A stretch of DNA of 64,000 nucleotides from an uncultured Candidatus Saccharibacteria bacterium (GTDB taxonomy: Bacteria; Patescibacteriota; Saccharimonadia; Saccharimonadales; UBA10212). Every line of letters starts with the position of its first letter. Position 1 is the stretch's first letter. Of the stretch, positions 44,413 to 58,193 are shown in pieces. A model generated the notes under the pieces. It searched no databases. It saw only the letters and a list, made by a program, of their open reading frames with translations, and was not told where the DNA came from. The translations under genes and the position numbers were made by a program. The stretch covers positions 475,234 through 539,233 of the forward strand of contig OZ246413.1 in assembly GCA_965231085.1 (NCBI GenBank), given 5' to 3'.

Positions 44413-45717
44413 TTATTTGTCTTGAAGGGCTTCGTAAGCTGGTAGTTTATGCCCGGCCATTAGTTCCAGGCTAGCGCTACCCCCCGTAGAGACGTGGTTA
44501 AAGTCTTTTATTAGATTTTGGGACTCAACATATTCGACCGTATCGCCACCGCCAACTACGGTAAATGGCTTGTTGGCATGGCTGTTACTGATACCAATCA
44601 TTGCCTGGACTATTGTTTTTGTCCCTTGAGCAAACGGCTCGTCGCCAGCTACTGGGCCCTTTGTCTCGGTTATACCCATGGTGCCGCTCCATACCGCCGT
44701 TTTACTCATCCTAATAGCCCCAGCAAACAAACTGGCACTCATCGGACCAATATCTAAGATTTTCTCGTTTGCTCCAATGCTATAACTTCGCTCGGTAGGT
44801 TTTTTGGGATAGCTTACAAGGCTCGCAAAGCTATGAGCAGTCAGATCAACTATTCGGATTGGTTGCTTGCCATCAGGCGACTCGCTGACAACCACATCAT
44901 TTGGTAATAAAAAGTTAAAGCCTCTGGTTTTTTCAGCCCGTTCGGCAGCCTCTAGTAAATCTTTAGCTAGTCCGAGCGACCCGTCGTCGACTAAACTGGC
45001 GCCAATTTTTATCCGCTTGGCTCTTAAAAAATCATTGGCTAGGGCCCCGCCGATTGCCACACAGTCAGCGATTTCTATAAATTTTGCTATCACATCAATT
45101 TTATCCGGTATCTTTGCGCCACCAACAACTGCCATAAAAGGTCGTTTAGGATCTTTCATTACTTGCTCGATGATAGTTATCTCTTTTTCAAGCAATAACC
45201 CAGCGACCGAAGGCAGGAGCTTAGTGATAGCTTCTGTACTAGCATGAGCCCGGTGGGAAACACCAAAAGCCTCCTGCACAAACACCTCTGCACCAGTTGC
45301 CTCGACGATTGCTTTGGCAAAGCCTAGATCATTTTTTTCTTCCTCTGGGTGAAAACGCAAATTTTCTAACAATATAACTGCTGATTCTGGGGCTTTTTGA
45401 ATGGCTGTTTTTACGATGTCGCCGATGCAGTCGTTCACGAATTCGACCTTTTTATCTAATATTTTTGATAGCCGCGTGGCCACTGGTGCCAAACTAAGAG
45501 ATACGTCTGGCTTGCCCTCCGGCCTACCAAGGTGAGAAATAATAATAAGTTTACTGGCACCAGCATTTTCAATGGCCTTGATGGAATCAATAGATTCCTG
45601 AATGCGGTAATCGTCTATGACTTGGTCATTTTTTATACTGACATTGTAGTCAGCCCGCATTAGCACAATCTTGCCAGCAAGATTTAAGTCACGAATTGTT
45701 TTTTTGCTAAAGCTCAA
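44413..45717 (-). CDS. pgk: phosphoglycerate kinase
   Basis: RADYNV, SHLGRPEGK, VVGGGDTV. 434 aa. Confidence 0.9.
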   Translation of the reverse strand: MSFSKKTIRDLNLAGKIVLMRADYNVSIKNDQVIDDYRIQESIDSIKAIENAGASKLIIISHLGRPEGKPDVSLSLAPVATRLSKILDKKVEFVNDCIGDIVKTAIQKAPESAVILLENLRFHPEEEKNDLGFAKAIVEATGAEVFVQEAFGVSHRAHASTEAITKLLPSVAGLLLEKEITIIEQVMKDPKRPFMAVVGGAKIPDKIDVIAKFIEIADCVAIGGALANDFLRAKRIKIGASLVDDGSLGLAKDLLEAAERAEKTRGFNFLLPNDVVVSESPDGKQPIRIVDLTAHSFASLVSYPKKPTERSYSIGANEKILDIGPMSASLFAGAIRMSKTAVWSGTMGITETKGPVAGDEPFAQGTKTIVQAMIGISNSHANKPFTVVGGGDTVEYVESQNLIKDFNHVSTGGSASLELMAGHKLPAYEALQDK

Positions 45718-45774
45718 AGGTTTCCCACCATTTTTATATCTGTAATTAGTATGTCAAAAAGCTTCTTGTAAATC

Positions 45775-45806
45775 CAACAAAAAAGACCTCTCGGTTAGAG
45801 AAGTCC
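45775..45806 (-). terminator. intrinsic terminator following element copy 1
   Basis: Minus strand reads GACTTCTC-TAACC-GAGAGGTC followed by TTTTTG, starting 3 nt after the CCA of the duplicated tRNA end. Confidence 0.6.
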
Positions 45807-45809
45807 CTT

Positions 45810-46002
45810 TTGGTGATCCCAAGGGGAGTCGAGTCACCTTCGGCGACCCCCGAACTTCTCGATTGCCAACAAGTTGGTATCGGAAGATTCGTTTCCGAAC
45901 TGCCTTCTTGGCAGTTCTCACCCTATTGCCTCCGGCAATTAGTATTCGACGCTCAGTGAAATCAATCTAAAAAGCCCACCCTATCGGGTGAGCATTTTAG
46001 AT
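45810..46002 (-). repeat. 193-bp tRNA-3'-end-linked structured element, copy 1 (downstream of tRNA-Glu)
   Basis: 45810-45831 is identical to the last 22 nt of tRNA-Glu (46003-46024). The conserved core is shared with 55678-55788 (identical blocks ggcgacccccgaacttct, ttcgtttccgaactgcc, ggcagttctcaccc). No ORF. Confidence 0.75.
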
Positions 46003-46077
46003 TGGTGATCCCAAGGGGAGTCGAACCCCTATTGCCGGGATGAAAACCCGATTTCCTAACCATTAGAAGATGGGACC
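46003..46077 (-). tRNA. tRNA-Glu (anticodon UUC)
   Basis: Hand-folded cloverleaf: acceptor GGTCCCA/TGGGATC, anticodon arm TCGGG-TTTTCAT-CCCGG, T-arm AGGGG-TTCGACT-CCCCT, encoded CCA. Confidence 0.85.
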
Positions 46078-46368
46078 TGAACAGAGGGATTTTAGCACAA
46101 TCACCCCTGATTTACCAAAAAACCCTCATAAGCTACTCCACCTAGCTTAGAGGGTAATTGGTTTTTTAGATTTTAGTTTTTTAGTGTCTACTTGCGCAGA
46201 CTAGAGCGGTCAGTCACGATTACTCTAACTAAACACTAGCACAATACGGCTAGTTTGGCAACCCCGAACCAAAATCTTGAGGCTTCGAGATTGGGATATT
46301 CTCCCTCTTCTAGCCTCAGGATTTGGTCACGGGGCAGGACCGTTTGTCCACACCCTCTTTAGGAGTGC

Positions 46369-47193
46369 TTAGTCACGATTTCTACGGTTACGCACAGCGT
46401 AATGTAGGGCTGCACCAGCCGCACTAGAACCAGCGAAAATTCCTAGAACATCGCCAGGACCAGTATTTGGTAGAGCCTTAGTTGTAGTAGCAGCAGCAGT
46501 CGTTACTGTAGGAGTAACTGGAGCTGTTGGCATACTAACAACTGCGGTAAAGGTAACTATCGCAGAGTACTCAAAGCATCCATGCCAGTCACCAAAGTTT
46601 GCAACTAAGGTACTAGGGTTTGTGAAGTTTGCAATGTGAATCGGTGCAGTCACAAAAGGGCCCTGACCATTTTGACGGTAAGTAGCCATTACTGGCGCGT
46701 TGGTGTCGAAAGTTAAGGTAAATGGACGAGCACCATTAAGGTCAACCGTATCGTTGACGTAACGTGGGTTGGCATTGTCGGCACTGATTTGGGCTGCAGC
46801 CTGTTGGCTTGTACGAGCACCCTGGGGTAGCATGACAAGCATTTGAGTGTTTAAAGCTGTAGCAGCACTAACACCAATCGCATTTGGGTTGGCGTCGTTA
46901 TGGATATATACACGCATAGTAATGCGCTGACCATCCGTAACGTTCATATTGTCTAGATATGCACCGTTAGACGAAGCATCTCTAGCATCAAAGAAAGCAC
47001 GTTCGTCGCCGTAGTTAACAGCGTTCGTGATTGAGTTAAATGTTACATAGTTCGCACCAGCACAACTCGTAGCACTCGCACACTGGAAAGTGGCACGATC
47101 TGATGGGGCGTAACCGGCAAACACACTAGCTGGCATGGCGATCAAAACGAAAGCCGATACAAAACTAGCTAAAGCAAGTTTAAATTTGTTCAT
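46369..47193 (-). CDS. LPXTG-anchored surface protein
   Basis: Signal peptide, then a C-terminal LPNTG, a hydrophobic stretch and RNRRNRD (a sortase sorting signal). Confidence 0.7.
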   Translation of the reverse strand: MNKFKLALASFVSAFVLIAMPASVFAGYAPSDRATFQCASATSCAGANYVTFNSITNAVNYGDERAFFDARDASSNGAYLDNMNVTDGQRITMRVYIHNDANPNAIGVSAATALNTQMLVMLPQGARTSQQAAAQISADNANPRYVNDTVDLNGARPFTLTFDTNAPVMATYRQNGQGPFVTAPIHIANFTNPSTLVANFGDWHGCFEYSAIVTFTAVVSMPTAPVTPTVTTAAATTTKALPNTGPGDVLGIFAGSSAAGAALHYAVRNRRNRD

Positions 47194-47276
47194 ATTAGTT
47201 CCTTTCTGAGGAAGTTAAATTAAGTTAAGTATAGTTGGAAAGAGACAAAACCAGATAGTTATTGAGCTTGAAAGTT

Positions 47277-47357
47277 GGCTGCCGGGACTCTTAAATTCGC
47301 TGGTTAAAGCGAAGAGTCACCGGCAGCCGGTGGAGGATCCCCCGAGGGGGACCCTCC
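47277..47357 (-). terminator. two consecutive GC-rich hairpins ending cassette D
   Basis: GGAGGGTCCCCC-TCG-GGGGGATCCTCC (47332-47357) and the long imperfect hairpin GGCTGCCGG...CCGGCAGCC (47277-47328), both just downstream of the stop at 47387. Confidence 0.5.
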
Positions 47358-47386
47358 AACCGAGCTACCGTTGTCGAACGTGGCGG

Positions 47387-48931
47387 TCACCCGCCGATGC
47401 AGTTGCCCATCTGGTCGGCCGGGGCGAACCCGATGGTGCCGTTCAGATGCCAGCACTGCTGGTTGCCTGAGCCGGTTGAACCGGGCGAGCCGCCCGCACC
47501 CACCGAGCCTCCGGGGCCGTTGCCGACCCCGAGGGACGGATTCTTGGGCTGCGGGGTGATGGGTGTCGTGGTGGTCGGCGGCGTGGTGGTCGGGGGAGAC
47601 TGGGTCGTCTCCGTGACCTGATTGTTGAACTTCAGGTCTCCCGACACGCCGACGATCCAGGTCCTACACAGCTGCCCGTCCTTGGGCTGCATGTGCATCC
47701 CTGCGAGCCAGTCGCTGCGCTCGCAGGCCTTGATCTTGGTGCCCTTCACGACGGGGATGGGAGTGCCATCGGCGTACGGAAGGATGTGGGGCTGGCAGTC
47801 GATAGCGGCGATGTTCGAGTCGAACTCGGCACCGTTGTCGACCGTGACCTTGAGCGGCAGCTTGATGCCGGCGTAGCCGGCGTAGTCGGCTGCCACTGCA
47901 GGCCCGGAGGCCTTGGTCAGGCACTTGCTCACTCCGGCGATGCCGGAGGTCGGGATGGCGGGGCTGGTCACGACTCCGCCCTTCTTCGGACGGTTGTAGA
48001 AGATCCAGTCGTTGCCTGCCCGATCGACGTGATCGAGCACCCAGTCCTTCGCCGGCACCTCGGACACGACACACTTGGCGCCGGCCGGGATACCGTAGTG
48101 GATGGGCTGACCGTTGTTCCAGCGGCGAACCTGCTGGTATGACGACGGGTTTGTGCAACGGATATCGAACAGGAAGTTGACGCGCCCGGTGAACCCGAGC
48201 GTGATCTTCCTGATCGAGCCACGGCTGGGCTTCGGAGCGGCCTTCGCTGGCCCGCAGTTGAGGGTGTTCTTGTTCCCCCCGACCTGCGAGCAGTTGTCGG
48301 CCGTGATGATGCCACCGCAGCCTGCGACGACTGCACCAGGGCTGTTGGTGACGGTCACCTTGCACCCCGCGGGGGGATTGCCTTGGGTGACCGTCTTAGC
48401 CGGTGCCGGTGCCGGCGTCGACTTCTTGACGGTGGGCGGCGGAGCCGCGACACGCGCGATCGGCACGACGTTCGAGCAGACCATCGCGAACTTCACGATG
48501 ATCTTGCCGCCGTCAGGCAGTACACCCGTGACCTTCCAGGCCGCGAGCGTCCCACCGGTGAGCCGACCGCTCACGAAGGTCTCGTGAGCGCCGGACATGA
48601 CGCCGAAGTAGCTGTTCTGCAGGATCCAGTCCTTGGTCGCCGACGAGGCACCCTTGATCAGGGCCGTCTGCTCGGCGGGGCTGAGACCCGCGCAGTGCAT
48701 CGCCCGCTTGCCGGCCGTGCTCGAGAGCGCGGAGTGAAGCTGGCTGGGGCTGTAGACCCCACCCTTGACGACTGCGTCGCCTCCGGGATGCCGCCAGTCG
48801 GCCTGTCGGACCTTGCAGTCGGCAGGAACACGGAACTGCGGGTTTGCCGCGGACGCGCTGAGCGCGCCGAACGCGGCGAGAATGGCCGCGACCACCAAAG
48901 CGGTGATTGCGGACTTCTTCGTAACGGCCAT
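47387..48931 (-). CDS. 514-aa secreted Cys-rich protein with a Pro/Thr linker, GC-rich cassette D
   Basis: GGAGGTGG lies 6 nt before the ATG at 48931. Signal peptide MAVTKKSAITALVVAAILAAFGALSASA. PPTTTPPTTTTP linker and a Gly-rich C-terminus. Several overlapping ORFs in other frames are high-GC artefacts. Confidence 0.75.
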   Translation of the reverse strand: MAVTKKSAITALVVAAILAAFGALSASAANPQFRVPADCKVRQADWRHPGGDAVVKGGVYSPSQLHSALSSTAGKRAMHCAGLSPAEQTALIKGASSATKDWILQNSYFGVMSGAHETFVSGRLTGGTLAAWKVTGVLPDGGKIIVKFAMVCSNVVPIARVAAPPPTVKKSTPAPAPAKTVTQGNPPAGCKVTVTNSPGAVVAGCGGIITADNCSQVGGNKNTLNCGPAKAAPKPSRGSIRKITLGFTGRVNFLFDIRCTNPSSYQQVRRWNNGQPIHYGIPAGAKCVVSEVPAKDWVLDHVDRAGNDWIFYNRPKKGGVVTSPAIPTSGIAGVSKCLTKASGPAVAADYAGYAGIKLPLKVTVDNGAEFDSNIAAIDCQPHILPYADGTPIPVVKGTKIKACERSDWLAGMHMQPKDGQLCRTWIVGVSGDLKFNNQVTETTQSPPTTTPPTTTTPITPQPKNPSLGVGNGPGGSVGAGGSPGSTGSGNQQCWHLNGTIGFAPADQMGNCIGG

Positions 48932-49254
48932 CGAAACCACCTCCTAGGTGATCGCGGTTTGTCGGGTGGCCTACCCGATCTGCTAGGCTTAGCAAGACAC
49001 AAAACCAATAAATAATTACGGGCTTGGTGTCTTGCTAGACTCTAAAACAGATGAACATTGGTAGTCGGTTATGTGGGTATTAAAACCCAATAACTATCTA
49101 GTTTGCTCTAATTTAGTATTTGTTATCTAAATCAGGTACAAACAGTCTGAATTGTTAAGGGATTCCCTCCTCCACCTCTGTGGCGAAGATGACCATATTC
49201 TAACAGATGTGAATACTTTTGTCAATATGCTTGTGTTTTTTAAGATGTTTATAA

Positions 49255-49995
49255 ATGAAAAGGCCCTCCGGGTGGAGGGCCTAGGGCTGTGGGGAGCGCT
49301 ACAAAGCGCTGCGCCCAAGCGGGAGCTTCGTATCCGAGCACGCTTATCGACGAATGCCGACCAGGTGCTCTAGGAGAGCTCTACCAAAGTTGGTCGAAGA
49401 CGCGAGGGGGCCGTACCTCTGTGGTGTACGGCCCCCTATCGGGCTGTGGGCGCTGATGATTTGCGCCCTTGGCTGCAAGGGATTTAGCGTCCCCGCAGCT
49501 TCTTGCCATGAGCCATACTATCTGCTCATGAAACTTCGCTGACCAGGGTTATGCCACACCCTGTTGCGTAGTCAGCGAAGGGTGCCAAAGTGAAGGCTGC
49601 GTAACTCCGCCGGTTGAGCTTTCGCGCCATGGAGCCGCTTTGACACCATTGTCGGAGACAGCTCCGCCAGGACTGCCTCCGACACCTTTCGCCCAGTGTG
49701 ATTCGGTCCCACCACTACTCGACACTATCGAGCTGGAGACTGTCTTTACCACACTGGGCGAACTTATGCTGCAAATATGTGGGCTGAATGACCTCCCGTA
49801 TCATCCAGCCCGGTCGGGGACTACCCCTTCTGTCACGGCACGAGGCTTGTTGCGCAACTACCCCGTACTGAATCGAACGAAATAACGAAAAGCGGTGCCT
49901 GCAAGTTACAGCCTCTCGGCTTTTGGGAGAACTCGCCCGGCCCCCAGCTTTGAAACACTGGACGCTCTCTGAACGCTACTTTTCTTCGTTCGACC
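49255..49995 (-). ncRNA. candidate large structured non-coding RNA (family unknown; strand tentative)
   Basis: GC-enriched with no ORF over 81 aa in any frame. Many perfect helices (49534-43/49571-80, 49406-16/49426-36, 49692-700/49750-58). Minus-strand terminator AGGCCCTCC-ACCC-GGAGGGCCT followed by TTTTCATTT at 49261-49282. Confidence 0.45.
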
Positions 49996-50182
49996 GACAT
50001 TTTTACTATGAGCAGACAGTAAGACATTTTGTCCTAGTGTCTGCTCATAGCATTGTTTTCTTCGACCAAAAAGTTAAGTAACTCTCAAGGATTAAAAAAT
50101 TAATATCCTTAAGCCGCATTAGAATATACAACATCCCAACTCTTTAGGCAATACCCTCTAGTGACTTGCGGCTGATATACTA

Positions 50183-51547
50183 ATGCTTATGAAAATCGCG
50201 ATTGTCGGCTGGGGGGTAGAAGGTCAAAGCGCTTATAAGTATTTTGGCCCGGACCACGATTATTTAATCGTTAACGAGGAGCCTCGCACCGACTTTCCGA
50301 CCGCAACTTCAAAAGTTAAAATCCAGTTTGTAAATAAGCCAAGAACGCCCGGAATCACCAGCAACGTCGCCGATACCAGCTATTTAGAAGGTATAAATAA
50401 TTGCGACAAAATCGTATATACTCCTACGTCACGCAAAGCTTTAGAAAAAGTCTTTAAACCAGATGACGATATCTGGCAAAAGTGTACTACCAACCTGGCT
50501 ATTTTCTTTGAAAATATAAAAACAAAAAATATCATTGGGGTAACCGGCACTAAAGGTAAGGGCACTACCTCTACTCTTATCTATAAGATGTTACAAGCTA
50601 GCGGTAAAAAAGTATTCCTCGGCGGCAACATTGGCAACAGCCCCTTAGATTTTATTCATGAAGTCACAGAAAACGACTGGGTTGTTATAGAGATGAGCAG
50701 CTTCCAGCTGTATAAGTTCCCCTATTCACCGCATATTGCTGTTTGTCTGATGATAATACCCGAGCATCTGGATTGGCATTCTGATTTCGAGGAGTATGTT
50801 GAGGCAAAATCTAATATCTTTAAACATCAAAAGCCTGAGGATTTTGCTATTTATTTTGAGAACAACAAGGACTCGGCCCATATCGCCGGTGAATCGGTCG
50901 GGAGAAAGATTCCCTATTTTGAACCACCGGGAGCGTTTGTCCGCGACGAAGGGATTATTAGTGTTGGCCAAGATGAAACAGAAGTAATATCAACCCGTGA
51001 AATTAAACTAATAGGCCAACACAATTTACAAAATGTTTGTGCCGCTATCACCGCTGTTTGGCAGATAGCCCAAGATGTTAGAGCAATCAAAAGTGTATTA
51101 ACAACATTTACTGGTCTAGAGCACCGGTTAGAGTTCGTCCGTGAGCTAAATGGAGTCAAATACTACGACGACTCCTTCGGTACTACTCCGGACACAGCCA
51201 TTGTTGCCCTTCGCTCTTTTAGCCAGCCAGTTATCTTGATAGTCGGCGGATCAGATAAAGGCGCCAGCTTTGAGACTCTAACAGATGAAATCGTAAAAGA
51301 TAGGGTGTCTGCTGCTATAACTATCGGTAATACGGGGCCGATCATAGCTGAGCAGCTTAGCAAGAAAGGTTTTAAAAATATTATTCCGGGGTTAACAACT
51401 ATGGATGAGATTGTTCAGGCAGCTCGGGGAGCAGCAAAGCCAGGCAGTATCGTCCTCTTGTCCACCGGCTGCGCTAGTTTTGGTATGTTTAAAGATTACA
51501 AGGACCGGGGTGATCAGTTTAAGCGAGCGGTCTTAACACTCTCTTAA
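50183..51547 (+). CDS. murD: UDP-N-acetylmuramoylalanine--D-glutamate ligase
   Basis: Mur ligase P-loop GVTGTKGKGTT, 454 aa. An extended -10 (TGATATACT) lies at 50173-50181. Confidence 0.9.
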   Translation: MLMKIAIVGWGVEGQSAYKYFGPDHDYLIVNEEPRTDFPTATSKVKIQFVNKPRTPGITSNVADTSYLEGINNCDKIVYTPTSRKALEKVFKPDDDIWQKCTTNLAIFFENIKTKNIIGVTGTKGKGTTSTLIYKMLQASGKKVFLGGNIGNSPLDFIHEVTENDWVVIEMSSFQLYKFPYSPHIAVCLMIIPEHLDWHSDFEEYVEAKSNIFKHQKPEDFAIYFENNKDSAHIAGESVGRKIPYFEPPGAFVRDEGIISVGQDETEVISTREIKLIGQHNLQNVCAAITAVWQIAQDVRAIKSVLTTFTGLEHRLEFVRELNGVKYYDDSFGTTPDTAIVALRSFSQPVILIVGGSDKGASFETLTDEIVKDRVSAAITIGNTGPIIAEQLSKKGFKNIIPGLTTMDEIVQAARGAAKPGSIVLLSTGCASFGMFKDYKDRGDQFKRAVLTLS

Positions 51548-52166
51548 GCTGCTCAATTACTGGGACTTCTGGTTGCAGAACTTCAGCTCTAGCACCGGCA
51601 GCCTGTTTGATTACATCTTCAATCCAATGGTAGTGAGTACACCCTAGAACGATTTCATCAGCACCTTGCGCTATAACTTCATTGACTGTTTTTGCGACTT
51701 TTTCGCGGTCTAAGCTGTTGTTTTCTATAAGGTATGACCAATCACTACAATCAGGCTCGACCACTTTTAAGCCAGCGGCATACTCTTTTTTAAGCCAAGC
51801 ATACCGCTCGCTCGATAAGGTTCTTGGCGTAGCACAAACAGCAATAACCCCTGATTTTGTTCTCTCGCCTGCCGGTTTGACCATCGGTTCCATGCCTACT
51901 AGAGGAACTGTTATTTCTTCGCGAAGCTTAGCAATGAGGTTGGTTGTAACCGTATTACAGGCAATGACTATGACTTCACAGCCTTCAGCTACAAGCTGAT
52001 TCAGTATTGGTGTTACAAAACTATGAATCTCTTCTATCGGTCTATTGCCGTAGGGCACATGTTTCTCATCATTTTTAAAAATCACATTGGCCATTGGTAG
52101 CTCTTTTTGGATAGCCAAAACAACACTCAAACCACCAACGCCACTATCGAAAACACCTATCTTCAT
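51519..52166 (-). CDS. murI: glutamate racemase (short, 215 aa)
   Basis: VFDSGVGGLSV, catalytic Cys motifs IACNT and LGCTHY. Confidence 0.8.
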   Translation of the reverse strand: MKIGVFDSGVGGLSVVLAIQKELPMANVIFKNDEKHVPYGNRPIEEIHSFVTPILNQLVAEGCEVIVIACNTVTTNLIAKLREEITVPLVGMEPMVKPAGERTKSGVIAVCATPRTLSSERYAWLKKEYAAGLKVVEPDCSDWSYLIENNSLDREKVAKTVNEVIAQGADEIVLGCTHYHWIEDVIKQAAGARAEVLQPEVPVIEQLKRVLRPLA

Positions 52167-52957
52167 CTGCTTGCGGCCCTAATTACGTTTTCAAAAAGAG
52201 CACAGACAGTCAGCGGGCCAACTCCGCCCTTTTTTGGAGTAATAGTCAGATCTTCCCGCTCGTAGACATCTGGCGCTAAATCGCCTACCGTTTTACCGGA
52301 TTCGCTGGCAACCCCAGCATCAACCACGACTGCACCGTGTTTTATCATATCTGCATACAAAACTGCTGGGCTGCCGGTAGCGGTAATAATTACGTCGGCT
52401 TTTTTTACGTGTCCGGCTATATCTTTAATCGTCCTATCAATAACTTCGACCGTGTATCCTGATTTTTTTAATATTTTCTCAAGTGGCGCGCCAACTAATT
52501 TACCCCGCCCAACTAGCAATATGCTCTTGTCTTTCAGCTCAACGTTGTAGCCGCTAAGCAACCAAAGAATGGCGTTAGGTGTTGCTGGGTCAAAATCGGG
52601 ACTGTCCCCAAGCGCATCGACATCCTTGGCCGCACTAACCAAATTGACAATTTTATTGGTTTCGGACACATCATTCAGGGGTAACTGAACAATTATGCCA
52701 TGCACCGAATCATCCTTGTTTAATTTGTTTAGTACCTCCGGCAGATCCACTTGTTCTGGGGTATATATTTCTACGCTTACTCCGATATCCGTACCATACT
52801 GCTTTTTTAATCTGACGTAGGTATTAATGACCGGATCGTCCTTAACTTGAACAATGGCAAGCTTGGGAATAATTTTATTGGCCCTAAGAGTCCTCACTTG
52901 CTTAGCGTGACGTTCTTTTATATAACCGGCTAATTCGGAACCGTTCAAAATTTTCAT
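52163..52957 (-). CDS. folD: bifunctional methylenetetrahydrofolate dehydrogenase/cyclohydrolase
   Basis: VQLPLN, GRGKLVGAPL, PKKGGVGPLTV. Confidence 0.9.
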   Translation of the reverse strand: MKILNGSELAGYIKERHAKQVRTLRANKIIPKLAIVQVKDDPVINTYVRLKKQYGTDIGVSVEIYTPEQVDLPEVLNKLNKDDSVHGIIVQLPLNDVSETNKIVNLVSAAKDVDALGDSPDFDPATPNAILWLLSGYNVELKDKSILLVGRGKLVGAPLEKILKKSGYTVEVIDRTIKDIAGHVKKADVIITATGSPAVLYADMIKHGAVVVDAGVASESGKTVGDLAPDVYEREDLTITPKKGGVGPLTVCALFENVIRAASR

Positions 52958-53007
52958 CTACACCTCATATTATCAAACCCTGACAGATTTTTATTGCTGA
53001 ATGAGTC

Positions 53008-53631
53008 CTATACTTTGTCAGTAAAGACCACAAGCCGGCCGGAATAACTTTTTTGCTCTTGGTCCCAGGCGCCCTGGCAGGTAATTAAGTTTAGGCGTGC
53101 TTTGCTGTCGGCTAGTCCAAATATTGACGAAGTATCATCCTTGTTGCTAAAAACCCTAAGTTCACGAACAACAAAATTTATATTCACCCCGAGATCATCT
53201 ATTACTGTCAGAACGTCCCCGGTTTGCAGCTTGTGCAGATTATCAAATACTGCGGGGATATTGTTTTCATAACCAAAGTGACCATCAATGACAGCGCTAC
53301 CCATTTGTCCAGGAACTGGCCCCCAAGCGAACCAGCCGGCATTAGCAGGAACTTTAGGCGCTTTCAATATTCCGTTTGGTCCCAGCACGACATAATCTAG
53401 TGAAGCATCTACGTTAATAACGGGAATAACAATCCTAGCTGGGTAGCTCGGGATTGATTCAGTTATCTTTGGCGTTGTCGGCAATGCAGTTTTCTCAGCC
53501 GCCAAGACCTGCTGCGTACTATGGTCGGGTTTGCCGAGAAGCACAGACGCAATAACTAAACTGCTGAGGATTGTGCCCACTCCGATACTCAAAATAAGCT
53601 TTTGTGTCGATAACCATTTTAACTTGCTCAT
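53008..53631 (-). CDS. sortase-family transpeptidase
   Basis: N-terminal TM, His region VIDGHF, catalytic Cys motif LNLITCQG. Adjacent to an LPXTG substrate gene. Confidence 0.8.
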   Translation of the reverse strand: MSKLKWLSTQKLILSIGVGTILSSLVIASVLLGKPDHSTQQVLAAEKTALPTTPKITESIPSYPARIVIPVINVDASLDYVVLGPNGILKAPKVPANAGWFAWGPVPGQMGSAVIDGHFGYENNIPAVFDNLHKLQTGDVLTVIDDLGVNINFVVRELRVFSNKDDTSSIFGLADSKARLNLITCQGAWDQEQKSYSGRLVVFTDKV

Positions 53632-53679
53632 AGTCTGTTTACTGCTTTGTAATCAGCTCGAGCCCATGGCTTAGCCGAA

Positions 53680-54606
53680 TTAACGAGACTGATTTTTCCG
53701 TACTAGGTAAACCAACGCGATACTCAACACAATCCCGGCAGGAATAGCGAACATGGAAGATATGCCATGATTTACCTGTGGGGCAAGGCCCGTGTTTGGC
53801 AGTTTTGCGCTAGCGGCCGTAGCAGCCGCGGCAGCAGCTATAGCGGCTGCCGAGCAAGTTGCTTTAGTTACAGTGGTTTTGTTTAGAATAACGTCTGCGT
53901 TCCTAGCCAGAAGCCTACCGTTAATAGTTGAGCTGCCGTTGTCAGTAATCGAAGTTAGTGCCAAGACGTTACCGACAAATGTTGAACCTGTTCCAAATGT
54001 CACAGAACTTGTAACCTGCCAAAAGACGTTACAAGCCTCGGCTCCGTTGATAAGACGAACCGTGCTACCTGACGCGGTAACAAGGTCCGAACTAGCTTGA
54101 AAAACAAAAACTGCGCCAGCATCACCTTGACCATCAAGTGTCAGAGGACTGGCAGCTGTTATGTTGGCAGTGGTAGCGTGTCCAAAGACATACACTCCCG
54201 GAGTAAGGGTTTGGCCACCAAGTTGGTTGTCGCCTGCTGAAAATGTTGTAGTTACGGGGGTTTTGCCGGCTGCATTCAGATAGGCAGTGGTGAGGTCGTT
54301 TTTAGCTGTAGTTAGCAGCGCAGCATTGTTAACGGAACCGCCAGGCCCCGTGCTATCAACCGCGTATATCGTGCCAGTTACTTCGGCCGAAGTTAAGCCT
54401 GAGTAGAAACTACCAGCTGCGGGGCTAAGACCAACATTTCCCGTAATAACTGAGCTCGGAACATCTGTGATGTGCTGACCGGCTAGAACCGCAAAACCGT
54501 CTGCTGTACCAAGCCCAACCGTGGTTACAGCTAAGGCGTGCCCAGCGACTGCGAACAAGAACAACGAACTAAGACAAGTGAACAAAGATTTTTTAAAGAT
54601 TTTCAT
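53680..54606 (-). CDS. LPXTG-anchored DUF3494 (ice-binding-like fold) surface protein
   Basis: Signal peptide, beta-solenoid-type repeats (GTADGFAVLAG...ITGNVGLSPA...CNVFWQV...NGRLLARNA) and a C-terminal LPNTG sorting signal. Confidence 0.7.
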   Translation of the reverse strand: MKIFKKSLFTCLSSLFLFAVAGHALAVTTVGLGTADGFAVLAGQHITDVPSSVITGNVGLSPAAGSFYSGLTSAEVTGTIYAVDSTGPGGSVNNAALLTTAKNDLTTAYLNAAGKTPVTTTFSAGDNQLGGQTLTPGVYVFGHATTANITAASPLTLDGQGDAGAVFVFQASSDLVTASGSTVRLINGAEACNVFWQVTSSVTFGTGSTFVGNVLALTSITDNGSSTINGRLLARNADVILNKTTVTKATCSAAAIAAAAAATAASAKLPNTGLAPQVNHGISSMFAIPAGIVLSIALVYLVRKNQSR

Positions 54607-54812
54607 ATGCTTTATAATAATTATTGAGTTTTTTCAATACCCTTCGTCTTTAAGTTTACTCCTAATTAGTTTTTTATCCTATGAATCTGGGGCTTTATTT
54701 TATTACTTTTATGTTAAATAGTAGGCTACATCAGTCGGCAAATATCATTATTCACGCATCATAAATATCACTTAGGATATAGTTTTCGCTACCCTAGCAC
54801 GATGTAGGTTGG

Positions 54813-55298
54813 CTATTTTAACGCTTTAGTTTTGTGCTCGCGTACGAAGCGATGGTAACCCAGATATAACACGATGATTAGCCCGGTGCTCACCACTCCG
54901 AATGAAAACTTTGAGTTTTCGGCAGCAAAGCTTTGCCCAAGGCTATACATAAGCGTAAAGACGCCACCAAGCAAGACTCCGTCAGCAATTAGTTTCATCC
55001 TTTTTTCATAAAGCAAGCTTGCGGCGAGCAACACTATAGAGGCTACCAAACTGATTATCGATACATTGCGGCTGTATGGCTTCATTTTAGTCATGTACTG
55101 GTCGTTTTGTTTATCAAAATCTTTTTGCTTTGCAATTTGCTCAGTCGTCAGTTCCTTGCCATAAGTGTTGAGTTCTGTTGGGTAGGTTGGCGCTTTTGGC
55201 CCAGTGTAGAAGGTGCTAATTCCCATCCCTACAAATATTGCTAAAAGTAATCCTAGAAAAAATGTATAGGCCAGCTTGAGTATTTTATTGTCTTCCAT
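54813..55298 (-). CDS. membrane protein, unknown function
   Basis: About 161 aa from the ATG at 55298 with 4 hydrophobic helices. The track ORF's N-terminal extension would overlap the upstream gene. Confidence 0.5.
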   Translation of the reverse strand: MEDNKILKLAYTFFLGLLLAIFVGMGISTFYTGPKAPTYPTELNTYGKELTTEQIAKQKDFDKQNDQYMTKMKPYSRNVSIISLVASIVLLAASLLYEKRMKLIADGVLLGGVFTLMYSLGQSFAAENSKFSFGVVSTGLIIVLYLGYHRFVREHKTKALK

Positions 55299-55351
55299 GC
55301 TGTTAAGTGTATGCTTGGGTATTGAATAATTCAATAAGGTTGGCGAGCTTG

Positions 55352-55645
55352 TCAGACAGCACCATGCAACAAGATTCCAAGAATGATAACCGCGTAAACT
55401 AACAACCATAAGAGCGCCGCAATAATTATGGGCTTGAGCTTATAACTAATGCCGTAAAACAAAAAAATGACTTCAAAAATAATAAATAGGGCATATGAGT
55501 GGATGGATAAATCTCCAGCGCTCTTAGAATTGAATATCTTGAATATCTGAGGCAATGACATTGCCGGATACAAGATCGCTGTACCATAAATGAGTTTATC
55601 TATCACGATGCGTTGCTTTTTGTTATAGCCTTTAGCAGTTTTCAC
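55352..55645 (-). CDS. PQ-loop / SemiSWEET-like three-helix membrane protein
   Basis: 97 aa with PQ motif SLPQIFKIFNSKSAGDLS and three TM helices. GTG start. Confidence 0.6.
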   Translation of the reverse strand: MKTAKGYNKKQRIVIDKLIYGTAILYPAMSLPQIFKIFNSKSAGDLSIHSYALFIIFEVIFLFYGISYKLKPIIIAALLWLLVYAVIILGILLHGAV

Positions 55646-55677
55646 CCCTCCAGAATAACATGTATCGGTGGGGTAGG

Positions 55678-55870
55678 TGGAGGGCCAGGCGGGACTCGGT
55701 CGCCTCCGGCGACCCCCGAACTTCTACCTAGCAAACAAGTTTGCAGGTGAAGGTTCGTTTCCGAACTGCCCCGGCAGTTCTCACCCCCGACGTTCTTTTT
55801 GATATGTCGTGGAAACGAGCCCGCTGCTCATGCCAATGAAAAGACCCCACGCAAGGTGAGGTCATTTCAC
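55678..55870 (-). repeat. 193-bp tRNA-3'-end-linked structured element, copy 2 (downstream of tRNA-Lys)
   Basis: 55678-55698 is identical to the last 21 nt of tRNA-Lys (55871-55891), again at an offset of exactly 193 bp. The core is homologous to 45832-45923 with compensatory helix changes. No ORF. Confidence 0.75.
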
Positions 55871-55947
55871 TGGAGGGCCAGGCGGGACTCGAACCCGCGA
55901 CATTCTGCTTAAGAGGCAGACGCTCTAACCAGCTGAGCTACTGGCCC
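55871..55947 (-). tRNA. tRNA-Lys (anticodon CUU)
   Basis: Hand-folded: acceptor GGGCCAG/CTGGCCC, anticodon arm TCTGC-CTCTTAA-GCAGA, T-arm GCGGG-TTCGAGT-CCCGC, encoded CCA. Confidence 0.85.
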
Positions 55948-56020
55948 GGATAGAACAGATTGCATTTTAGCAATTTTACATCTGTTAGTAAACAGTTCCT
56001 GCCTGTATAATGGCTCTCGC

Positions 56021-56773
56021 ATGGTAGTCACTGGAATCAAAACTCAAATCGTTACACCGGGCTCAATTGAGCTTATTGAGCTTATTGATCAAAGTATCCC
56101 AGAAATTGAAGAGGGAACCATAATAGCTATAACTTCAAAAATAGTTTCCCTATGTGAAGGCAGAGTGGTCAACACAGCTGGTACAGACAAAGAAGAATTG
56201 ATAAAACAAGAGTCCGATTACTTTTTACCCAGCACTTTGAGCGCTTACGGGTATCATTTTACGATCAGAGATAATTCTATGACTTCAGCTGCAGGTATCG
56301 ATGAATCAAACACTGGCGGGTACTACGTTTTGTGGCCCTCCAACCCTCAGAATACCGTTAATAAAGTCAGGGAGCATCTAGCCAATAAATATAATTTAAA
56401 GAACGTTGGCGTAATTATTACTGACAGTACATGCACTCCGCTTAGAAGGGGCACCGTAGGACAAATGCTAGCCTATAGTGGTTTTGAAGCTCTGTCAGAC
56501 TATCGCGGCACTCCTGACTTATTTGGCAGAAAGTTCGAAGTTAGTGTAGCTGGTATCGGAATAGGTTTGGCTTGTGCAGCGGTTTTAGTTATGGGAGAAG
56601 GCACTGAACAGACCCCAATAGTTAAAATAACCAATGTTCCTTTTGTCAAATTCCAAAATCGTAACCCAAATGCCGAAGAATTGGCTTTATCCATCATGAA
56701 TAAACAAGAAGACTTGTTTGAACCATTTCTAAAAACTGTCCCGTGGCAAAAGGGTGGCAGACAAAAGTCTTAA
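56021..56773 (+). CDS. F420-0:gamma-glutamyl ligase (CofE)-family protein
   Basis: 250 aa. N-terminal IAITSKIVSLCEGRVV and the later GIDESN, ITDS segments resemble the CofE/FbiB-N ligase fold. Confidence 0.65.
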   Translation: MVVTGIKTQIVTPGSIELIELIDQSIPEIEEGTIIAITSKIVSLCEGRVVNTAGTDKEELIKQESDYFLPSTLSAYGYHFTIRDNSMTSAAGIDESNTGGYYVLWPSNPQNTVNKVREHLANKYNLKNVGVIITDSTCTPLRRGTVGQMLAYSGFEALSDYRGTPDLFGRKFEVSVAGIGIGLACAAVLVMGEGTEQTPIVKITNVPFVKFQNRNPNAEELALSIMNKQEDLFEPFLKTVPWQKGGRQKS

Positions 56774-56847
56774 ATTATTACCTTACATATTTTCGTGCTA
56801 ATCTGAAAAAGAAGTTCTTTCCCAACTAGGTTTGAGGGAGGTCGAAG

Positions 56848-57540
56848 ATGTCGGTAGATACCGGCGGCGCTGTTATCGATCTCCCGGAGACGGGAAGGTC
56901 GATTCGAGCAACCGCCAACAAGCTGGTTCAGTGGTTCTTGCTGGCGTTCAAGAATGCTTGCAAGAAGCTCTGGCTCCTACTCAAGGCAACGGGACCCCTG
57001 GTCTTGATCTTGCTGGTTCTCAAGATCCCAGATGCAATCGGGCTGGCTGCCGCGGCACGCCACTTCTTCTGGTTCGGGATCCCGGTACCAGCCTTCACTC
57101 CCGAGATGAGGCTGATTCTTTCCCCCCGAATCGAAGTACTCAGTTCGGTGGTAAAGTCGTTGTCGTGGCAGCAGTTCATCATCATCGGAGTAATCCGAAG
57201 GATGGTAGCTGACCCAATCTACTACTACATCGGGAAGAGGGGTGCTAGAGTCATTGCCAGCGATGACTCAACCAGAAGTGGCCGTCTAGCGATCCGTCTC
57301 GAGCATGCAGCACACTGGAAGGTTCTAACAGCCGTTGGCATCTTGACGTTCGCCGAGTCTTTCATCCCAACGGCAATCAGCGTTTTCTTGGTTGCATTCA
57401 ATCCCTACATCTTTGCGGGGACAGCCGAGGTCAAGCTGAAGTGGGTGCTGCTCGTAGATACGCTCGCAAGTATCGCGTTCATGTTGGTCTTCTTCCTGTA
57501 CGGACCAGACCTCGTGAACGCCGTACGGGCACTGCTTTAA
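56848..57540 (+). CDS. 230-aa polytopic membrane protein, GC-enriched cassette F
   Basis: GAGGGAGG lies 6 nt before the ATG. 5-6 hydrophobic helices. Visibly higher GC than flanking genes. Family not recognised. Confidence 0.7.
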   Translation: MSVDTGGAVIDLPETGRSIRATANKLVQWFLLAFKNACKKLWLLLKATGPLVLILLVLKIPDAIGLAAAARHFFWFGIPVPAFTPEMRLILSPRIEVLSSVVKSLSWQQFIIIGVIRRMVADPIYYYIGKRGARVIASDDSTRSGRLAIRLEHAAHWKVLTAVGILTFAESFIPTAISVFLVAFNPYIFAGTAEVKLKWVLLVDTLASIAFMLVFFLYGPDLVNAVRALL

Positions 57541-57564
57541 AAACCTAAGGAGGGAACTTCAAAA

Positions 57565-57588
57565 CTCCAGCCCGTATCTGGGCTGGAG
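57565..57588 (+). terminator. hairpin ending cassette F
   Basis: CTCCAGCCC-GTATCT-GGGCTGGAG, 25 nt after the stop. Only a weak T-tract follows. Confidence 0.45.
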
Positions 57589-57614
57589 CTCCTCCATATT
57601 TATAAACTCAAATT

Positions 57615-57691
57615 TGGTACACCCGGCAGGATTCGAACCTGCGACCCCTTGGTTCGAAGCCAAGTACTCTAATCCGCTGAGCTACGGGTGC
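57615..57691 (-). tRNA. tRNA-Arg (anticodon UCG)
   Basis: Hand-folded: GCACCCG acceptor, anticodon arm CTTGG-CTTCGAA-CCAAG, T-arm GCAGG-TTCGAAT-CCTGC, encoded CCA. Confidence 0.85.
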
Positions 57692-57731
57692 GTATTCGCA
57701 ATTTTAACAGATTGGGACTCAGTTTACGAGA

Positions 57732-58193
57732 CTATTGTTGGTCAGTTTTATTAAGGGTTTCAATTATTGCTTCGGCTATTTTTTGGGCATGTTCACGGCT
57801 CATACCCAGCCTAGCTAAGTTTTTGGGCTTCCCCTCTGTATCGATCTTAAAATTCATTACCAACCCATGGACGCCAGCAACTACGTCTACTGAGTCGGTA
57901 TATAGCACACCTTCTTCTACCTTGTTGTCGGAGTGGATCGTTTTAATGGTGCCGTACCCGGCCATTTCCCAGAGGTGCACAGCTTCCTTTTCCTTAGCCC
58001 CAAAATGGCTGATTAGTAAAAGTAAGATGTCTTCGCTTGGTCTTATTAGACCTTTTTCAATTGTCGCTAGCTGCATAACATCAATCTCCACCGCCCCAGA
58101 AACCTCGACTAGACTTTCCTTAGCCTTAGCTCGCATGGCTTTAAGGTGGCTCCCGAGGTGACTATATGGAGGTTTTTTATGCACTTCACTCAT
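57732..58193 (-). CDS. XRE-family helix-turn-helix protein
   Basis: 153 aa with an N-terminal HTH (LGSHLKAMRAKAKESLVEVSGAVEIDVMQLATIEKG). Confidence 0.65.
   Translation of the reverse strand: MSEVHKKPPYSHLGSHLKAMRAKAKESLVEVSGAVEIDVMQLATIEKGLIRPSEDILLLLISHFGAKEKEAVHLWEMAGYGTIKTIHSDNKVEEGVLYTDSVDVVAGVHGLVMNFKIDTEGKPKNLARLGMSREHAQKIAEAIIETLNKTDQQ

Follow-up and report, generated by a model that had tools for sequence, protein, structure and literature searches.

Behind the gene for tRNA-Lys in this Saccharibacteria genome, the last part of the same tRNA occurs a second time, which raises the question of what a repeated tRNA end does downstream of an intact gene and what the sequence between the two copies is. 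The window referred to below is the whole stretch of 64,000 nucleotides that was analyzed. A repeat search finds the 21-nt sequence TGGAGGGCCAGGCGGGACTCG (family D15) in two copies, at 55678-55698 and 55871-55891, that are 100% identical at a spacing of 193, as the initial annotation had stated. The same annotation described a 193-bp element that is fused to the tRNA 3′ end. The repeat and its spacing hold, but the picture of a separate, fused unit does not: a core at 55699-55783 interrupts a partial copy of the tRNA. On the minus strand, the order is tRNA-Lys, the terminator T1, a spacer of ~45 nt, agaacgtcggggg, the core, and the exact copy of positions 56-76 including CCA. The individual parts are the following:

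55992-55964, minus strand: promoter-like site upstream of tRNA-Lys
55871..55947, minus strand: intact tRNA-Lys(CTT) with encoded CCA (ARAGORN; Rfam tRNA, 74.9 bits)
55833..55870, minus strand: terminator T1 after tRNA-Lys (terminator scan)
55804..55824, minus strand: antisense arm GCGGGCTCGTTTCCACGACAT, a degenerate inverted copy of positions ~43-65 of the uninterrupted tRNA-Lys (local alignment)
55784..55796, minus strand: sense copy cccccgacgttct of tRNA-Lys positions ~41-53 (variable loop and T-stem 5′ strand), the 5′ flank of the core
55699..55783, minus strand: core of ~85 nt that replaces T54-Psi55 (covariance model R1, 100.5 bits; covariation in all helices; alignment), in the order TGA, P1 (55763-55780), GGAAAC, P2 enclosing P3 (55718-55756), GGGG, and P4 (55699-55713)
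55678..55698, minus strand: exact copy of tRNA-Lys positions 56-76 (rest of the T-loop, T-stem 3′ strand, acceptor 3′ strand, and CCA; 100% identity)
55644..55674, minus strand: weak hairpin ACCCCACC...GGAGGGGT without a T-run, overlapping the GTG start of the PQ-loop gene
55645-55643, minus strand: GTG of a PQ-loop/SemiSWEET-like ORF of 97 aa

The T1 hairpin, GACCTCAC-CTTGC-GTGGGGTC followed by TTTTC, lies at 55863-55843 on the minus strand, where a terminator-like hairpin had been described, and its A-rich and T-rich flanks finish in TGG, which is able to pair with the CCA end. The previously reported match of 55784-55796 to tRNA 55894-55906 with two mismatches is reproduced; read on the minus strand, cccccgacgttct is agaacgtcggggg. 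The spacer that had been called diverged is indeed divergent, and it can be identified as a degenerate antisense arm of the tRNA. In the Lys unit, this arm matches the reverse complement of the tRNA in 17 of 22 aligned columns and pairs with the 3′ copy in predicted folds (centroid and MFE).

The window contains a sister unit that follows tRNA-Glu:

46003..46077, minus strand: intact tRNA-Glu(TTC), host of the sister unit
45810..46002, minus strand: the Glu unit as a whole (covariance model R1, 97.7 bits)
45965-46002, minus strand: T1 of the Glu unit
45934-45964, minus strand: antisense arm, followed by the loop GGA
45921-45930, minus strand: sense positions 43-53
45833-45920, minus strand: core
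45810-45832, minus strand: exact tRNA copy
45812-45778, minus strand: second terminator after the Glu unit

Here, the repeat measures 23 nt (45810-45832 and 46002-46024, spacing 192, family D10). The Lys and Glu cores share 82% identity across 72 nt (family D1), and core sub-motifs occur twice in the window compared to 0.03-0.12 occurrences expected by chance. The covariance model yields these two cores only in the 64 kb. The terminators differ in both window units, yet the tRNA copy of 21-23 nt is still exact. Upstream of tRNA-Glu, a 274-aa ORF (46369-47193, minus strand) carries a signal-peptide-like N-terminus and a C-terminal LPNTG that is followed by a hydrophobic stretch and a basic tail; judged from these sequence features, it probably encodes a sortase-anchored surface protein, and it has no Pfam match.

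One reading of the Lys locus concerns the gene downstream. As the initial annotation had noted, the element ends 32 nt before the GTG of the SemiSWEET-like gene, and a cis-regulatory leader that sequesters the Shine-Dalgarno sequence of this gene had been considered. The pairing itself is possible: beside the GTG, ACCCCACC (55674-55667) pairs with GGAGGGGT (55651-55644) in 7/8 positions, and the terminator scan finds no second terminator after the Lys unit, where other units have one. A regulatory role is nevertheless extremely improbable. The pairing lies outside of the conserved unit, and other units have unrelated downstream genes and usually a terminator of their own; the genes beside the units follow the tRNA locus and not the unit, and most units end in their own terminator. 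In addition, GGAGGGG overlaps the GTG itself and is therefore badly placed as a Shine-Dalgarno sequence. As the GTG lies inside of GGAGGGGTG (55643-55651), the only Shine-Dalgarno-like sequence overlaps the start, and the true start of the ORF is uncertain. Homologs of the neighboring F420-ligase-like gene have no tRNA-Lys neighbor, and no orthologous locus was obtained by this route.

The two window units belong to a larger family. A three-part pattern was derived from the joining strands of the core and used to scan one genome per species (185,579 species genomes). The scan returned 55 loci, 52 of which are true cores. Apart from three chance matches, the contigs are assigned to Saccharibacteria, Patescibacteria, or plain “bacterium,” together with one short Gemmatimonadaceae-binned contig. 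The strict pattern is matched in ~35 of the 185,579 species genomes, with at most five pattern matches per genome, and the same pattern added 25 loci from metagenomes. The covariance model R1 was built on 51 cores and searched over the collected genome and metagenome loci, which brings the total to 93 cores. Almost all of them lie on Saccharibacteria contigs, and a diverged subfamily with GCAAGG in place of GGAAAC is among them. The search pattern prescribed 24 core positions, among them the three outermost pairs of both P1 and P2; this collection therefore overstates sequence conservation and contains too few diverged relatives. A search of viral contigs, phages, and plasmids gave no core match. 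An Rfam cmscan of 45000-58000 at E ≤ 10 returned three tRNAs and chance matches, none of which falls on either core. Literature searches gave no description of the core family and led only to group I introns in Patescibacteria tRNAs (PMC13011429). The core family is thus apparently undescribed.

A cognate intact tRNA lies within 500 nt of 73 of the 93 cores, and all 73 are co-oriented with it. The suggestion that the copies mirror their own neighboring tRNA is borne out by this, with one exception that is described below. The carriers comprise 22 anticodon species and at least 12 amino acid identities (besides Lys and Glu: Met, His, Leu, Pro, Arg, Gly, Thr, Val, Gln, and Ala). A speculative link to anticodon nucleases, for which Lys and Glu tRNAs are targets, loses its basis because the family sits at 22 anticodon species and not just at these two. 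About half of the remaining 20 cores lie within ~150 nt of a contig end, and four are split from their tRNA by an apparent integrated island. The exception is a core of 109 bits at L062:884-971, which is intergenic and represents the sole clear non-tRNA context; no tRNA, tmRNA, or Rfam match lies within reach. It is located downstream of a gene that, judged by eye, resembles peptidyl-tRNA hydrolase, and its flanks look structured.

Four 3′ units without an intact tRNA upstream (L046:2450-2560, L043:1150-1280, L024:470-600, and L048:5770-5880, oriented as the core) show a common layout. Before the first terminator, only the last ~7 nt of the tRNA are present, for example CCCTCCA, and this remnant is preceded by unrelated sequence, with TTGCAACA..ACATACGT in two of the loci. 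It looks like an island has integrated at the extreme tRNA 3′ end and has parted the gene from the unit.

The ~85-nt core consists of three covariation-supported helices. From 5′ to 3′, it is composed of TGA, P1, GGAAAC, P2 enclosing P3, GGGG, and P4. In an alignment of 51 sequences, 97.3% of the cells form standard pairs, compared to 23-42% with slid partners. Compensatory, two-sided changes occur in 16 of the 31 pairs, and the covariation score is 0.286 compared to 0.083 in shuffles and at most 0.046 with slid partners; the outer three pairs of P1 and P2 were fixed by the search pattern and are uninformative in this respect. The observed measures of pairing and covariation were reached by none of the 500 shuffles, and the earlier expectation that a conserved structure is under selection here, rather than a remnant in decay, is thereby borne out. 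The P4 helix contains a G·U pair that is kept in 45 of 48 distinct sequences. As this pair would be C·A on the opposite strand, the folding strand is the tRNA-sense strand. The conserved G·T-containing hairpins could, however, act in single-stranded DNA instead of RNA. Visual comparison of the junction strands revealed no fit to hammerhead cores, box C/D k-turns, integron attC R-boxes, or group II intron ends. A “GUGA” near the core 3′ end is not a D box, as it is base-paired in P4 with covariation.

These data also bear on a further explanation of the locus, namely that the repeat arose by chance or is what remains of a tandem tRNA duplication under neutral decay. The spacers of the two window units are strongly diverged, as such a remnant would predict. 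Against this stand 93 related cores with compensatory changes in many genomes and at many tRNAs; covariation and recurrence already refute the idea, which is hardly conceivable any longer.

The cores follow one insertion rule when their flanks are mapped on the neighboring intact tRNA. The match to the tRNA extends to a G, skips two nucleotides, and continues at a C (once at an A). Four positions are used, with slashes setting off the two missing nucleotides:

G53/T54-Psi55/C56: T-loop, the commonest site, used by both window units
G24/C25-R26/C27: between the D stem and the anticodon stem
G37/A38-G39/C40: anticodon loop of tRNA-Leu(TAG)
G18/G19-U20/A21: D-loop of tRNA-Gln

The same footprint is found where one core is nested in another, which always takes place at GGGG/NN/C at the foot of P4 (L056, L065, L075, and L083). 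Two or three cores within one partial copy, or cores nested in cores, are present in L056, L045, L048, L065, L075, and L083.

The units take on two arrangements. In the 3′-type units (n = 42), the interrupted copy lies downstream of the intact gene and keeps the 3′ part; in the 5′-type units (n = 31), it lies upstream of the intact gene and keeps the 5′ part. The layout of the 5′ type is positions 1-53 or 1-24, the core, a continuation of ~10 nt, a linker of 36-73 nt, and the intact gene. Both types can occur at one tRNA (L034, L049, and L025). The Lys unit of the window is a typical 3′-type, T-loop member of the core family, and its sense 5′ flank (positions ~41-53) is also found in other 3′-type units; its one departure from the others is the missing second terminator. 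A 193-bp element is therefore not the proper unit of description: the part that appears to be mobile is the ~85-nt core, and ~40% of the units carry a tRNA 5′ part upstream of the gene. A constant unit length, as expected for a fixed-size circle, was rejected, as the periods vary over ~165-196 nt. The partial copy always stops ~10 nt past the core, which argues that insertion and duplication are coupled and not independent. The tRNA 3′ copy is exact or near-exact through CCA in most 3′ units, and in L034, L015, and L028 the duplicated block also spans the terminator. Among the units examined, no interrupted full-length tRNA gene without an intact neighbor was found.

Further inserts are seen in partial tRNA copies. 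At L009:3300-3960 (tRNA-Phe, both sides), L009:4770-4950 (downstream of tRNA-Val), L037:1400-1700, and L044:1900-2080, other structured inserts occupy T-loop or D-arm sites, in a layout of terminator, antisense arm, and interrupted copy, or of 5′ copy and linker. As R1 does not match them, several insert families seem to share one lifestyle. In partial tRNA-Leu copies of L051 and L025, a section of the D-loop has given way to a hairpin insert of ~22 nt, GCGTGAAACGC. This insert stands in the 5′ flanks of cores, for example GGTGA-CTGCGTGAAACGCAAGTAATCG-TATACACG, and is a further tiny insert type in dead copies.

The overall picture invites comparison with the islands and prophages that integrases place into tRNA genes. 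In both cases, an intact tRNA is kept through an adjacent replacement segment, and the displaced segment forms a direct repeat from the start of the T-loop to CCA, as do the exact 21-nt and 23-nt repeats of the window. A miniature integrative element or its scar would accordingly be an ~190-bp attP-like cassette that a recombinase encoded elsewhere puts, together with a replacement gene segment, into the T-loop and other loops. The direct repeat of the tRNA 3′ part from T-loop to CCA is the classic attL/attR picture, and the repeat extends over the terminator in L034, L015, and L028. The distal unit of L048 is more decayed, as expected if new cassettes enter the intact gene, and islands seem to integrate at tRNA 3′ ends in L046, L043, and L024. 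The core units differ from such elements in several respects, however. The insert measures only ~170 bp, the 172 nt between the Lys repeats hold no real ORF and leave no room for one, and no integrase is present in the units or beside them in the 8-kb loci of the genome scan. The units use 22 anticodon species, at least four positions, and sites inside of other cores, for which a single att specificity is insufficient, and two nucleotides are lost where an overlap would be kept at both junctions. Additionally, 5′-side versions exist, core-only insertions occur without a duplicated segment, cores sit in cores, and the conserved part shows base-pair covariation instead of repeated protein-binding sites. 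A classical integrative element was rejected on the absence of an integrase, the many targets, the 2-nt loss, and the covariation; a cassette that is mobilized from elsewhere is improbable.

An intron is another type of insert that would be expected at such positions. Non-canonical introns of archaeal tRNAs (Thermoproteales) spread between tRNA positions and sit at loops and junctions, as the cores do. In Bacteria, splicing machinery for such sites is not known. Group I introns are common in Patescibacteria tRNA genes, where they occupy anticodon loops (PMC13011429). The cores resemble the archaeal non-canonical introns and the Patescibacteria group I introns (PMC13011429) as short, ORF-less, structured inserts that are co-oriented with many tRNAs and occupy several loop or junction positions. 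This likeness could be explained if a duplicated tRNA gene contained a minimal or degenerate intron, either group I-like or spliced by an endonuclease. Unlike in tRNA introns, the interrupted copy is partial and cannot give a tRNA, and an intact gene is always located beside it. Removal of the core restores no tRNA: positions 54-55 (or 25-26, or 38-39) are missing, and the other half of the gene is absent. No group I, other intron, or ribozyme model matches at E ≤ 10, the 85 nt are much too short for a self-splicing group I core, and no interrupted full-length gene has been found without its intact neighbor. The cores were therefore rejected as tRNA introns in the usual sense, and the degenerate form is very improbable.

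Small transposable elements are resembled in part. A MITE was rejected, as the core ends (TGAGAA... and ...GTGAC) are not inverted repeats and the target loses two nucleotides without a duplication. The miniature elements of the IS200/IS605 type (PATEs) come closer: like them, the core is small, ORF-less, and strand-specific, has hairpins (P1 and P4) near its ends, and lacks terminal inverted repeats and target duplication. The likeness is only partial, however. No target word of 4-5 nt is conserved on the 5′ side of the insert, where the flanks end in ...GTGGG, ...TAGAG, ...TTAGG, ...AAGTG, and ...CGGGG and have only the G in common. Two nucleotides of the target are lost, and the core harbors a central, covarying P2/P3 domain with conserved joining strands, while its targets are set by tRNA shape. 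A 2-bp target deletion is known from R2-type target-primed retrotransposition. With R2, the core shares site-specific insertion into a structural RNA gene, the loss of two target nucleotides, and a strictly fixed orientation. It differs by the absence of a reverse transcriptase/endonuclease ORF and of a poly(A) or 5′ truncation pattern and by its bacterial host, so that the likeness is one of footprint only. A guide RNA, either in the style of omega-RNA or bridge-RNA or H/ACA-like for the modified positions 54-55, 38-39, and 26, was rejected because the tRNA pieces that flank the core on either side are sense copies and because an antisense segment is missing from the D-arm units.

The antisense arm is a regular component of the 3′ type. 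In all 22 distinct 3′ units, the stretch that separates the first terminator from the interrupted copy contains the 3′ part of the uninterrupted tRNA in inverted, degenerate form, from TGG (the complement of CCA) to about position 40. Transitions in the arms preserve G·U pairs in 62 cases and create A·C in 24, a bias that would fit selection for pairing in the sense-strand transcript. Of 17 MFE folds, 14 show the arm paired with the 3′ copy and the core as a branch. The T-loop units of the 5′ type have a short arm only, GGATTTGAACC; in the D-arm units of the 5′ type, a search for a long antisense arm gave alignment scores no better than those of shuffles. Snap-back copying of the interrupted copy was rejected as the origin of the arm because the arm copies the uninterrupted tRNA: it carries AA across from the replaced TT and lacks an antisense core. 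Conceivable instead are a template switch by fold-back at the terminator palindrome and a cDNA that is primed from TGG on the CCA end.

The terminators of the tRNAs are built in a similar manner. In the window (55833-55870, 45965-46002, and 45778-45812) and at most loci, they are long hairpins, with A-rich and T-rich flanks that finish in TGG. Because these flanks pair back on the encoded CCA end, terminator and tRNA 3′ end combine into one extended palindrome. A tRNA followed by a T1-like terminator of the same design is found in nearly all 3′-type units. Neither 3′ unit of the window has a promoter-like site inside, and both are located behind a good intrinsic terminator T1, which counts against an expressed insertion element; the unit would be transcribed together with the tRNA by read-through of T1.

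It is quite unlikely, but conceivable, that the core is itself a self-inserting RNA, that is, a minimal ribozyme or the substrate of an RNA ligase. Such an RNA would invade loops of tRNA transcripts between G and C, drop two nucleotides, and become fixed by reverse transcription, and reverse transcription of the tRNA 3′ part, primed from the TGG of the terminator on the CCA end, would account for the antisense arms. If true, the core would live in tRNAs and be smaller than any other mobile RNA element known in Bacteria.

The fold and the retention of the tRNA copies also raise the main rival of an insertion element, a family of small RNAs on tRNA genes that benefits the host. The core would be the functional domain of this RNA, the tRNA pieces would supply promoter, terminator, and end processing (RNase P, RNase Z, and CCA), and copies would arise by duplication or gene conversion. 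The RNA-type covariation with its strand-specific G·U pair agrees with a host RNA, and so do the 3′ copies that stay exact or near-exact through CCA in most 3′ units while the arms decay, the rod-plus-branch fold that ends tRNA-like at its 3′ end (MFE folds), and the units at the tRNA-Lys(TTT) locus that are syntenic across several genomes. That the copy of 21-23 nt is exact next to arms that are much decayed could point to a function at the host level or to gene conversion instead of selfish spread. The distribution is less favorable to a host RNA: it is patchy (~35 of 185,579 species genomes by the strict pattern), and a given tRNA is accompanied by a unit in only some of the genomes. Nested and multiple cores in dead tRNA copies are not expected, the same core occurs with either a 5′ part or a 3′ part and at four tRNA positions, and the 3′ units are located behind a terminator without a promoter of their own. 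As the flanks differ among units with the same core, no single mature RNA is conserved. A host-beneficial small RNA is possible, if unlikely, and this reading and that of an insertion element are not exclusive.

Several observations speak for movement of the core. Cores sit at tRNAs of at least 12 amino acid identities, each with the flanks of that tRNA, which implies that the core moved without its flanks. An identical 88-nt core is present at three tRNA sites in three species-level genomes (L031, L035, and L054), namely the T-loop of a Leu tRNA, the T-loop of Pro-CGG in a 5′-type unit, and the D/anticodon junction of Pro-TGG. Core similarity is higher within a genome (0.87) than between genomes (0.82, p = 2e-4). 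Genomes differ in whether a given tRNA carries a unit, for example Lys(CTT) in L004 and L023, second and third cores accumulate in dead tRNA copies, and a tandem array in L048 has a more decayed distal unit. The core alone thus appears to be the mobile part. The units are not linked to any transposase, integrase, or reverse transcriptase, and neither a free or circular form nor a filled/empty pair in close strains was seen. Clustering of the ORFs in the 8-kb loci of the 52 genome-scan units gave housekeeping synteny groups only and no recurrent recombinase-like neighbor.

Starting from the observed fold, footprint, orientation, two arrangements, nesting, and spread of the core, the family is best explained as undescribed, small, ORF-less, structured, and strand-specific insertion elements that live in Saccharibacteria tRNA genes, with a rough probability of 0.55. 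The core would be a mobile unit that inserts strand-specifically into tRNA-shaped targets, perhaps via an RNA/cDNA or a single-strand intermediate. An interrupted essential tRNA gene would be recovered only if the segment is duplicated, which would leave an intact gene beside the interrupted copy. The unit may be co-transcribed with the tRNA by read-through of T1, and pairing of the antisense arm with the interrupted sense copy may fold its RNA into a rod from which the core branches off. The RNA (or single-strand) fold of the core would then be what selection preserves.

If this is true, the reduced genomes of Saccharibacteria carry an undescribed genetic element that is tiny, ORF-less, structured, strictly strand-specific, and self-nesting. 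It would recognize tRNA-shaped targets and occur solely beside tRNAs that a gene-restoring partial duplication has kept intact. Its RNA fold would be new and a candidate for catalysis or for the recruitment of proteins. The element would also represent a new route of tRNA-locus remodeling, including the replacement of the promoters and terminators of tRNA genes, and tRNA annotation and att-site prediction in candidate-phyla genomes would misread its units as prophage scars. Insertion into bacterial tRNA genes at the level of RNA or of a single strand would thereby become a concrete question for cultivated TM7 strains.
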